Below are positions 1,549-4,028 of a stretch of 64,000 nt of DNA, piece after piece. The notes under the pieces were generated by a model. It did not search any database, was not told where the DNA came from, and saw only the letters and a program-made list of their open reading frames with translations. The stretch's first letter is position 1. The number at the start of each line of letters is the position of its first letter. Made by a program: the position numbers and the translations under genes. The stretch is from Brevundimonas sp. (lineage in GTDB: Bacteria > Pseudomonadota > Alphaproteobacteria > Caulobacterales > Caulobacteraceae). Location: assembly GCF_051858995.1 (NCBI RefSeq), contig NZ_JBHYGN010000014.1, positions 12,468-76,467 of the forward strand, written 5' to 3'.

Positions 1549-1791
1549 ATGGCCGACCCTCACGCCCACGACGACTATGTTCGCGGCTCGATGGAAATCA
1601 GCGAGCAGAAGTCGACCTACGATCTGTTCATGGCGCTGTCGAAATACGGTTCGCTGGCCATCGTGGCCCTGCTGACCTTCTTGACTATCGGCTTCATGTA
1701 CGACGGCAGCCTGCTGGTCGGCTTTGGCGCGGCGATCGTCCTGCTGGTCGCGGGCGTCTTCTTCCTGCGCTCGCCGAAGAAGGCCCACTGA
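1549..1791 (+). CDS. aa3-type cytochrome c oxidase subunit IV
   Basis: 80 aa; N-terminal DYVRGSMEISEQKSTYDLF followed by hydrophobic helices, typical of the alphaproteobacterial family usually found beside pntA. Confidence 0.8.
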   Translation: MADPHAHDDYVRGSMEISEQKSTYDLFMALSKYGSLAIVALLTFLTIGFMYDGSLLVGFGAAIVLLVAGVFFLRSPKKAH

Positions 1792-1840: not shown

Positions 1841-1868
1841 CCGGGCTGTTCAGACAGTCCGGTTTTTT
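1841..1868 (+). terminator. Intrinsic terminator after cox IV, possibly bidirectional
   Basis: Stem CCGGGCTGT/ACAGTCCGG with loop TCAG, followed by TTTTTT. Confidence 0.8.
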
Positions 1869-2045
1869 CGCGTCCGGGCGTCAGGTCAGATGTGAGGGGA
1901 GGGCTTCTTCGCGTCTGCGAAACGGGTCCACGGCCCAACTCTCTGGCGAATCCGAGGATCACGCCGAGGCCGTTGGGCCGTTTCCCGCCTTCTGAAGCCT
2001 GTTCAGCGTATCAGCGAGCCGCTGCAGCGCCAGAGGCTGCGTTGG
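1841..2045 (-). ncRNA. Candidate structured small RNA; strand uncertain
   Basis: No credible ORF between convergent genes; perfect 9-bp stem 1931-1939/1972-1980 with inner stems; CU-rich CCCUCCCCUCAC on the minus strand; sigma70-like promoter at 2048-2076. Confidence 0.35.
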
Positions 2046-2076
2046 AAATTATGCTGCGCCGCAGCATAATCGGGAA
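2042..2076. promoter_or_regulatory. Palindromic operator overlapping two mirror-image sigma70-like promoters
   Basis: ATTATGCTGC-GCC-GCAGCATAAT (2048-2070); plus strand TTGGAA-N17-CATAAT, minus strand TTCCCG-N17-CATAAT. Confidence 0.5.
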
Positions 2077-2120
2077 CGGTGTTGCGTGGATGCACCACGC
2101 CACGGGCCGCCGTGGGTCGA

Positions 2121-4028
2121 TCAGACCCCGGCGACCGCGCGCAGGGCCGAGTGGGCGTTCGAGCCGCTCGGGATGGTGCTGACGCTGACGCCCGCCTCGT
2201 CCGGGACGGCCAGGTAGCCGGCCTTGGCCGCGGCGTCGCCCAGGCGGCGGCGCGAGGTCAGGACCACCAGCGGGGCCGAGAACAGCAGGGGCAGGACCAC
2301 CGGGGCGAACCAGGTGATCAGGTCCGGGCGGACGCACAGGCCGGCGCAGAACAGCAGGCCCACGCCCATCTGCCAGCGCATGGCGCGGAAGGCGTCGCGC
2401 CAGCTGACGCCGTCAGCGTCGCGGTCCTGGGCCTTCCAGCCGGCGTCGTGGCCCGAGGCGATCTGGATGATGGCCTTGGTGTTGGCGACCATCATGATCG
2501 GGGCGATCAGGGCGGACAGGAAGATTTCCATGGCCATGCCCTTGGCGATGCGCTTGCCGCCGCCGAAGGCGCGACGCTCGCGCGGACGGCTGAGGACCAG
2601 AAGGCCGCCCATGATCTTCGGACCGATCAGCAGCATGCCCGACAGCAGGGTGGCCAGCATGAAGGGCGAGAACTCGGGGTGAAGCAGGTAGGCGAACGAC
2701 GACCAGTCGATCGGGTACTGCAGCTGGATCACCATCCCGGCGATCAGCGAGGCCAGCCACAGGGGCGACGAGAAGTAGGCCATGAAGCCCATGGCCATCT
2801 GGACACGGTTCATCACGGTCATGCTGCGGGTCTTCAGCAGGCCCAGGTGCTGCATGTTGCCCTGGCACCAACGGTGATCGCGCTGGATGAAGTCCAGCAT
2901 GGTAGCCGGGGTTTCCTCGCAGCTGCCGTCAAGGGCGGCGGTGACGTGCACAGCCCAGCCGGCGCGGCGCAGCAGGGCGGCCTCGACCGTATCGTGGCTC
3001 AGGATGGCGCCGCCGAACGGCTCGCGCCCCGGCAGGATCGGCAGGTGAGCGGTCGAGGCGAAGGCCTCGGTGCGCAGGATGGCGTTGTGGCCCCAGTAGC
3101 TGGCTTCCGAGCCGGCCCACCAGGCCAGGCCGGCGGCGGCGACGCGACCGTAAAGGCGCACACTGAACTGCGACACGCGGGCGAACAGGGTCTGGCCCTT
3201 GATGATGGTGGGGGTGGTCTGCAGCAGGCCGATGCCCGGATTGCGCTCCATGCAGTCGACCATGCGCAGGATGGTCTCACCAGCCATGGTCGAGTCGGCG
3301 TCCAGCACCAGCATGAACGGATAGGCGCCGCCGAAACGCTGGGTCCATTCCGACAGGTTGCCGCACTTGCGCTCGATGTTCTTCTCGCGACGGCGATAGA
3401 AGACGCGGCTGTGGGCGTGGGCGCGGAAGCCCAGATAGGCCTGATGCTCCTGATCAGCCGCTTCCGGCTTGGTCGAGTCGCTCAGGACGAAGATGTCGAA
3501 GGCGTCCGAGACGCCGAGGCGGGCCAGCGAATTGTCGATGACAGCCAGGCGCGCGAAGGCGGCGCGGGCGTCCTCGTTGTACAGCGGCATCAGCAGGGCG
3601 GTGCGCTGGGTCGGCTCGGCCGGATGCGGGGCGAAGGCCAGATCATCCTGCTCACGGCCGGTCATCAGGACCCAGAAGCCGATGGCGGCGCTGGAGAACC
3701 AACAGCCGATGGCGGTGATCAGCACGCCGAAGATGACCAGCGAGGTCACTTCCAGCGAATCGAAGCCGTTGCGGGCGAACAGGGCCACCGGCGCGATCAG
3801 GGCTAGGGCGGTAACAAGCGCGGTCAGAACGGCCAGCGCCAGACGACGGCCGCCGACGTTCACAGGCGAGGTCGCCGGAGTCGGGACGTCAGGCGTCGCA
3901 TCCCAGCTGTTCAGGGACTGGCGCGGCATCGCCATCGGCGCTTCGTCCGGCAGCCAGGTCCATGCCGGGCGGTCATTCTGGCTCGACGCGGCGTTGGCGA
4001 CGTCGATCCGGATCGCTTGATTGCTCAT
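2121..4028 (-). CDS. opgH: Glucans biosynthesis glucosyltransferase H (GT2)
   Basis: MPLYNED, LDADS, LSHDTVEA and RDHRWCQGN motifs plus flanking TM helices; start moved to ATG 4028. Confidence 0.9.
   Translation of the reverse strand: MSNQAIRIDVANAASSQNDRPAWTWLPDEAPMAMPRQSLNSWDATPDVPTPATSPVNVGGRRLALAVLTALVTALALIAPVALFARNGFDSLEVTSLVIFGVLITAIGCWFSSAAIGFWVLMTGREQDDLAFAPHPAEPTQRTALLMPLYNEDARAAFARLAVIDNSLARLGVSDAFDIFVLSDSTKPEAADQEHQAYLGFRAHAHSRVFYRRREKNIERKCGNLSEWTQRFGGAYPFMLVLDADSTMAGETILRMVDCMERNPGIGLLQTTPTIIKGQTLFARVSQFSVRLYGRVAAAGLAWWAGSEASYWGHNAILRTEAFASTAHLPILPGREPFGGAILSHDTVEAALLRRAGWAVHVTAALDGSCEETPATMLDFIQRDHRWCQGNMQHLGLLKTRSMTVMNRVQMAMGFMAYFSSPLWLASLIAGMVIQLQYPIDWSSFAYLLHPEFSPFMLATLLSGMLLIGPKIMGGLLVLSRPRERRAFGGGKRIAKGMAMEIFLSALIAPIMMVANTKAIIQIASGHDAGWKAQDRDADGVSWRDAFRAMRWQMGVGLLFCAGLCVRPDLITWFAPVVLPLLFSAPLVVLTSRRRLGDAAAKAGYLAVPDEAGVSVSTIPSGSNAHSALRAVAGV

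Follow-up and report, generated by a model that had tools for sequence, protein, structure and literature searches.

The DNA analysed here, referred to as the window, is a 64,000-nucleotide stretch of a Brevundimonas genome. Near one end of it, a 329-nt spacer (1792-2120) separates two convergent genes. On the minus strand lies opgH (mdoH), which encodes the glucans biosynthesis glucosyltransferase; its product scored 771.9 bits against the NCBIfam model NF003962 (MdoH), the cut-off of which is 328. The longest opgH reading frame starts at a TTG (4103), and an alternative ATG start lies at 4028-4026. The latter, with an MdoH model alignment that begins at residue 20 of the protein that it would produce, is the more likely start. 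A small membrane protein gene approaches from the other side. The features of the locus, in order of coordinates, are as follows.

1549-1791, plus strand: gene for an 80-residue membrane protein of the COX4_pro_2 family (Pfam)
1841-1868, plus strand: intrinsic terminator of this gene, read from the sequence (hairpin 1841-1862 followed by T6, 1863-1868), outside the conserved element
1892-1919, minus strand: 3′ tail, comprising a clade-specific small hairpin UUCGC/GCGAA (1921-1908) and then the C-rich tract GCCCUCCCCUCAC (1904-1892)
1920-1990, minus strand: long irregular hairpin (RNAalifold and pair counts), made up of P1 (AGGCGGG with CCCGYUU; 1990-1984 with 1926-1920), the 10-bp P2 (1981-1972 with 1939-1930) and the variable apical helices P3/P4 (1971-1940)
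1983-1998, minus strand: purine-rich block GCUU(U)CAGAAGGCGGGA, identical in 20/20 homologues save one U and containing the 5′ strand of P1 (1990-1984)
1992-2015, minus strand: conserved GCUGAUACGCUGAAC...UUCAG, nearly invariant in 20 sequences, with a possible hairpin Hx (CUGA/UCAG)
2015-1920, minus strand: core structured domain, delimited by comparison of 20 sequences
2016-2043, minus strand: variable 5′ leader, with a putative transcription start at about 2040-2043 as judged from the position of the -10 element
2048-2070, either strand: perfect 23-bp palindrome ATTATGCTGCGCCGCAGCATAAT, a candidate PhaR (AniA) operator by motif match, the left arm of which supplies a minus-strand -10-like CATAAT (2053-2048)
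2071-2076, minus strand: putative, weak and poorly conserved -35 element TTCCCG, at a 17-nt spacing from CATAAT
2079-2098, minus strand: second TGC-rich box GGTGCATCCACGCAACACC (TGCA-N4-CGCA), upstream of the putative -35 element and kept in 17/20 homologues
2100-2115, minus strand: short GC hairpin CCACGG/CCGTGG just 3′ of the opgH stop codon, without a U-tract
2121-4028, minus strand: opgH/mdoH, stop codon at 2123-2121

The preliminary description of this DNA had proposed an orphan structured small RNA in the spacer, and all of the stems and motifs that it listed are present: a perfect stem CGGCCCAAC/GTTGGGCCG (1931-1939/1972-1980) with the inner pairings GGCG/CGCC (1945-48/1962-65) and ATCC/GGAT (1950-53/1956-59); an alternative pairing of GCGAAACGG (1917-25) with CCGTTTC (1978-84); a TTCGC/GCGAA hairpin (1908-12/1917-21); and, on the minus strand, the motif CCCTCCCCTCAC at plus-strand positions 1892-1903. 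That description could not match the sequence to 6S, SRP, tmRNA or a known riboswitch. Rfam had no family that matched 1400-2600 even at E<=10, and nothing in the whole window reached a gathering score. ARAGORN found no tRNA or tmRNA. Single-sequence folding of 1835-2075 gave z-scores against shuffles of -2.9 for the minus strand and -3.1 for the plus strand, within a span of -2.3 to -3.1 on either strand. As these values are modest and alike on both strands, the window sequence alone cannot decide whether there is an RNA or on which strand it lies. The evidence beyond chance is comparative, consisting of the conservation of the core and the covariation of the main helix.

Homologues were collected by BLAST searches with the spacer in relatives, by a genus-wide search with a relative's spacer and by pattern scans of species genomes and metagenomes. 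The element was present in 11 of the 276 Brevundimonas species genomes and in about 10 metagenome contigs; nhmmer found a single copy in the genome. The comparative set consisted of 20 sequences, 19 of them distinct, which fall into four clades. At every homologous locus opgH lies directly upstream of the element (tblastn and alignment). The gene on the other side varies: some loci have a small membrane gene, and L094, L095, L117 and L138 have an unrelated convergent gene. The terminator at 1841-1868 is missing where this neighbour differs and also where the spacing differs (L096 and L097). Since the far neighbour is variable and the plus-strand terminator can be missing, the conserved unit starts at the opgH stop codon and ends shortly after the big hairpin, which leaves 1841-1868 outside it. 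The hairpin at 1841-1862, also listed in the preliminary description, is followed by T6 on the plus strand; it therefore belongs to the COX4_pro_2 gene as its intrinsic terminator and not to the minus strand, and the four loci with the unrelated neighbour do without it. Between species that share only 57-66% identity in the encoded protein, this terminator (CCGGGCTGTTCAGNCAGTCCGG with its T-run) is conserved to about 90%. The GC hairpin at 2100-2115 varies in sequence in the 20-locus alignment, yet some hairpin recurs there in the relatives.

Judged by their flanking proteins, the closest relatives are G191 (OpgH 94%, small protein 88%) and G262; both have no copy of the element but retain the gene order. 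The element is dispensable, because these two relatives live without it. Their spacers (L101 and L102, respectively) carry a different motif, AACGCCCC ... GGGGCGTTGT ... ACAACGCCCC, able to form two mutually exclusive hairpins. A covariance model of the element (R1), run against the collected loci, detected no similar RNA beside the PhaR boxes of Caulobacter, Phenylobacterium and other taxa. In these searches, the distribution is confined to a subclade of one genus, Brevundimonas.

The homologous domains have lengths of 93, 94, 100, 101, 104 and 106 nt. These differ by amounts that are not multiples of 3, so there is no coding frame; the earlier judgement that the region holds no credible open reading frame stands. 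Between clades, the core blocks are 80-96% identical, compared with 20-50% for the leader and apical segments. We used these variable segments of the element itself as the neutral yardstick. The 4-fold degenerate sites of opgH had been considered for this purpose and were rejected, as GC3 bias saturates them at 0.70-0.86. The block GCUUUCAGAAGGCGGGA is invariant across the 20 sequences, and in the predicted ensembles most of the invariant sequence is engaged in base pairs.

RNAalifold, applied to the minus-strand alignment, predicted Hx, P1, the 10-bp P2 and variable apical helices. The preliminary description had called for a covariation analysis, and both RNAalifold and explicit pair counts show that the main helix covaries across homologues. 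P2 was 100% paired in the 19 distinct sequences, with four of its pairs changed on both sides (G-C/A-U/G-U series). For the segment at 1992-2015, helices 1 and 2 of the pair counts were 91-97% paired, almost without covariation. Over all tested pairs, 92.5% of the cells were paired, as against 27-51% when the partners were slid by 1-3 columns. The covariation score was 0.182 against 0.128 in shuffles, a value that 0 of 500 shuffles reached. Because the sequences group into four clades, the compensatory changes may represent few independent events. As to the strand, the tested pairs included 43 G-U and 7 A-C cells, which favours the minus strand; the core fold was more stable on the minus than on the plus strand in 18 of 19 sequences; and the apical loops, read on the minus strand, are often cUUCGg or cUCCGg tetraloops (UNCG). 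The covarying stems, the G-U asymmetry and the UNCG loops in the 20 homologues support the proposal that the minus strand of the locus specifies a non-coding RNA that is both conserved and structured.

The palindrome at 2048-2070 lies next to this domain. PhaR is a regulator that senses granules of the bioplastic PHB. Its motif, WNWDDNYGCRNYGCRNHHWNW, comes from S. meliloti, where it was defined and then confirmed in EMSA experiments (PMC12542648); the palindrome fits that motif at 21 of 21 positions (2049-2069). The YGCR-N-YGCR core is kept in 20/20 homologues. The host genome encodes phaR (C2:142045-142227), a phasin gene, phaZ and an alphaR8/suhB small RNA, and a YGCR-N-YGCR box occurs at each of the phaZ, phasin and alphaR8 promoters; at the phasin promoter, two boxes flank the -35 element. 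The extended pattern YGCR-N-YGCR-N-CATAA has only six occurrences in the 3.3 Mb genome, all of them in non-coding DNA: two belong to the phaZ and phasin promoters, and another two come from the palindrome at 2048-2070, which fits the pattern on both strands. An identical 20-mer was found in 64 other proteobacterial records, and wherever its position was checked it stood directly upstream of phaZ (L042, L071 and L092), phaR (L045 and L078) or phasin genes (L052, L059 and L070). This operator sequence is thus in use at PHB genes.

Further boxes of this type were seen in non-coding DNA elsewhere in the genome. One (C7:121497, minus strand) precedes a dksA-like gene by about 170 nt, another (C12:124807, plus strand) falls within a gap of some 600 nt that lacks coding sequence, 3.4 kb away from the phasin gene, and a related palindrome, ATGCCGCGCTGCAGCAT, stands upstream of a mucR/ros-like gene (C9:177445). 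All three may mark additional members of the PhaR regulon. At C14:10088, 2.4 kb before the start of the window, the genome has a near-copy of the palindrome, GAGCTGCGTCGCAGCAT. It is probably a chance match inside a gene, because the surrounding DNA shows strong third-position GC periodicity (0.86).

The second box, at 2079-2098, may be a weaker PhaR site or an activator site; it resembles the paired boxes that flank the -35 element at the host phasin promoter and at S. meliloti phaP1/2 (PMC12542648). A sigma-54 promoter within it was considered and rejected on inspection: GG-N9-GC has the wrong spacing, and there is no -12 element.

The preliminary description had the RNA driven from a promoter at the palindrome, and the arrangement of the locus agrees with this. 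The RNA lies immediately downstream of the palindrome on the minus strand, where the palindrome can serve as a sigma70-like spacer, filling the 17 nt between TTCCCG and CATAAT. A minus-strand -10-like hexamer (TAnnnT/CATAAT) is found in 20/20 homologues, including the three most divergent of them (L097, L130 and L164), in which the plus-strand -10 has been lost. The minus-strand order of TGC-rich box, -35, operator and -10 is the same as at the host phasin promoter, and the placement of the operator is that of the dyad in the S. meliloti mmgR promoter (PMC8401924). We therefore infer, from this conserved layout, that the promoter points along the minus strand. The leader that would follow (2016-2043) can form a hairpin that shows no conservation of sequence, its identity between clades being only 0.4-0.5.

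The 3′ side of the domain is less constant. A CU-rich 'seed', CCCUCCCCUCAC, had been proposed to pair with ribosome-binding sites; it turned out not to be a conserved sequence, since CCUCC occurs in only 10 of the 20 homologues and at shifting positions. What recurs is the composition: in all 20 homologues the 40 nt that follow P1 are rich in C (C 45%, G 22%), and a tail of this kind might just as well serve for Rho loading. When the full-length element was paired with the leaders of the phasin gene, phaZ, phaR and opgH, every duplex energy was within background, by a weak method that ignores intramolecular structure. A role as a sponge for alphaR8 was also considered and rejected: the duplex of the alphaR8 seed with the candidate had an energy of -18.5 kcal/mol, which 17% of random genomic segments equalled.

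The reading that we prefer, and to which we give an even chance, is that the element specifies a PhaR-repressed structured small RNA of about 125-155 nt. This RNA would represent a new family, limited to one subclade of Brevundimonas, and may lie within the opgH 3′UTR. The transcript would run on the minus strand from about 2042 to about 1890, with its core at 2015-1920, and its start would most likely lie some 7 nt past a -10 element formed by an arm of the PhaR operator. By binding at 2048-2070, PhaR would repress the promoter in cells without PHB; when PHB granules titrate PhaR, the promoter would be released, making the RNA a riboregulator dependent on PHB status. The RNA might also be produced from the opgH 3′UTR. 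Contact with an mRNA or a protein could be made by the invariant GCUUUCAGAAGGCGGGA, by the CUGAUA motifs or by the C-rich tail.

A bolder version is more doubtful, though worth stating: the element may found a second PhaR-controlled riboregulator family, unrelated to MmgR/alphaR8 and coexisting with it, that acts through the purine-rich block or through protein binding and couples carbon-storage status to the synthesis of envelope glucan (OPG) or to other Brevundimonas targets. So far, PhaR is known to control one small RNA family, MmgR/alphaR8. If a structurally unrelated RNA does stand under a consensus PhaR operator in a genome that has alphaR8 as well, this would mean that RNA regulators have been drawn into the PHB-sensing circuit at least twice, and there would be a testable link between carbon storage and the opgH locus in Brevundimonas and the Caulobacterales. 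The element is well suited to experiment, having a perfect operator, a single copy and natural relatives without it; its narrow distribution limits its present weight.

The strongest competing explanation, which we regard as a real though minority possibility, is that the structured domain is a terminator or stabiliser in the 3′UTR of the opgH mRNA and that there is no independent small RNA. The GC hairpin would then be the place where read-through ends, or where 3′ exonucleases halt after Rho-dependent termination in the C-rich tail, and the PhaR box would be a minor internal promoter or would serve the other strand. We found no hairpin with a U-tract on the minus strand, either after the element or between the opgH stop codon and the element; since no such terminator separates the two, the RNA may be, or may also be, the opgH 3′UTR. 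The constant position of the element directly 3′ of opgH points the same way, as do the C-rich, G-poor tail, which is like a Rho loading site, and the UNCG-capped hairpins, which are common in terminators. However, a terminator needs neither an invariant 17-mer, nor a conserved CUGAUA block, nor a 45-bp multi-helix hairpin. Moreover, a PhaR operator with a conserved -10 stands between opgH and the domain in 20/20 homologues, and the closest relatives manage without the element.

Less probable, and in our judgement unlikely, is that the PhaR-controlled promoter fires along the plus strand and yields an antisense RNA across the 3′ end of opgH, tying glucan synthesis to PHB status, with the minus-strand hairpin as a separate matter. 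The palindrome is symmetric, and the only promoter that a scan of the window reported there is on the plus strand (TTGGAA-N17-CATAAT, 9 of 12 matches). The plus-strand CATAAT is found in 14 of the 20 homologues, and at the host phaZ promoter an identical GCATAAT comes after the box in the orientation of phaZ. Nevertheless, L097, L130 and L164 have lost the plus-strand -10 and still retain both the box and the RNA domain; the plus-strand -35 lacks conservation, reading TTGGAA in the window and GCACAA in other homologues; and nothing structured or terminator-like lies downstream on the plus strand.

Chance folding of a GC-rich spacer, a repeat or mobile element (REP or attC-like) or a decayed gene would be in keeping with the modest single-sequence z-scores, and the stem of the window does mimic attC core sites (GCCCAAC/GTTGGGC, 1930-1939/1972-1981). 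We consider this group of explanations very improbable, given that the element keeps a fixed locus across clades with compensatory changes and is single-copy; a decayed gene is contradicted, in addition, by length differences that are not multiples of 3. An integron attC site, defined by a conserved inverse core RYYYAAC and a core GTTRRRY, was rejected in particular: the attC-type letters are found only in the clade of the window, the other clades having GCCCGAC/GTCGGGC or GCCCGGC/GCCGGGC through compensatory changes, and the likeness is a coincidence.

The alphaR8/MmgR family is Rfam family RF00519 ('suhB'), which includes S. meliloti MmgR and Caulobacter crescentus SisA-D and has a membership threshold of 41 bits. 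In 1400-2600, RF00519 had no match even at E<=10, nor did it reach the gathering score anywhere in the window. The host's own alphaR8 lies outside the window, on the minus strand at G000:C1:96855-96934 (61.6 bits). In its promoter, TTGACC-ATTTGTGCACTGCACA-CTAGCT, a PhaR dyad occupies the spacer, an arrangement shared with S. meliloti mmgR. That the element is a divergent anti-Shine-Dalgarno small RNA of this family is the least credible reading of all and was rejected: a PhaR dyad in the promoter spacer is common to both and the window has a CU-rich tract, CCCUCCCCUC, but against it stand the RF00519 result, the genuine copy elsewhere, a different length and fold, and the lack of both UUUCCUCCCU and a Rho-independent terminator.

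The new element thus has to be compared with MmgR/alphaR8 as a separate RNA. In S. meliloti, PhaR represses the small RNA gene mmgR via a dyad between the -35 and -10 elements (PMC8401924; PMC12542648). The alphaR8 family, which spans the Alphaproteobacteria, has an invariant single-stranded 10-mer, UUUCCUCCCU, after a weak hairpin, ends at its 3′ side in a Rho-independent terminator and is about 77 nt long (PMC12559287). Both are non-coding RNAs of PHB-making alphaproteobacteria with a PhaR dyad between the -35 and -10 elements, a dyad that does not define the family, and both have a C/U-rich stretch that could mask ribosome-binding sites. They show no similarity in sequence or by covariance model. 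UUUCCUCCCU is absent from all 20 homologues of the element, which also has no U-tract terminator. The element is about twice as long as alphaR8 (its conserved domain alone is about 95-106 nt), contains an invariant block rich in purines as well as a multi-helix hairpin of 45 bp, and adjoins opgH, whereas alphaR8/MmgR adjoins an FGase gene.

Rhodobacter and Paracoccus have PhaR operators of the same kind at their phaP, phaZ and phaR promoters. The site at 2048-2070 is also like the operators at phaP, phaZ and phaR of S. meliloti (PMC12542648) in its YGCR-N-YGCR core, in its AT-rich arms that overlie promoter elements and in the presence of a second box beyond the -35 element. Unlike those operators, it lies between two convergent genes, with no protein gene downstream on either strand.

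A further comparison is with enterobacterial small RNAs embedded in 3′UTRs. MicL and DapZ have their own internal promoters, share the intrinsic terminator of the mRNA and act through Hfq. Although it differs from them in having no evident terminator, the element resembles MicL and DapZ in being a conserved RNA of small-RNA size that directly follows a coding gene in the same orientation and whose putative promoter is close to the end of that gene's transcript.
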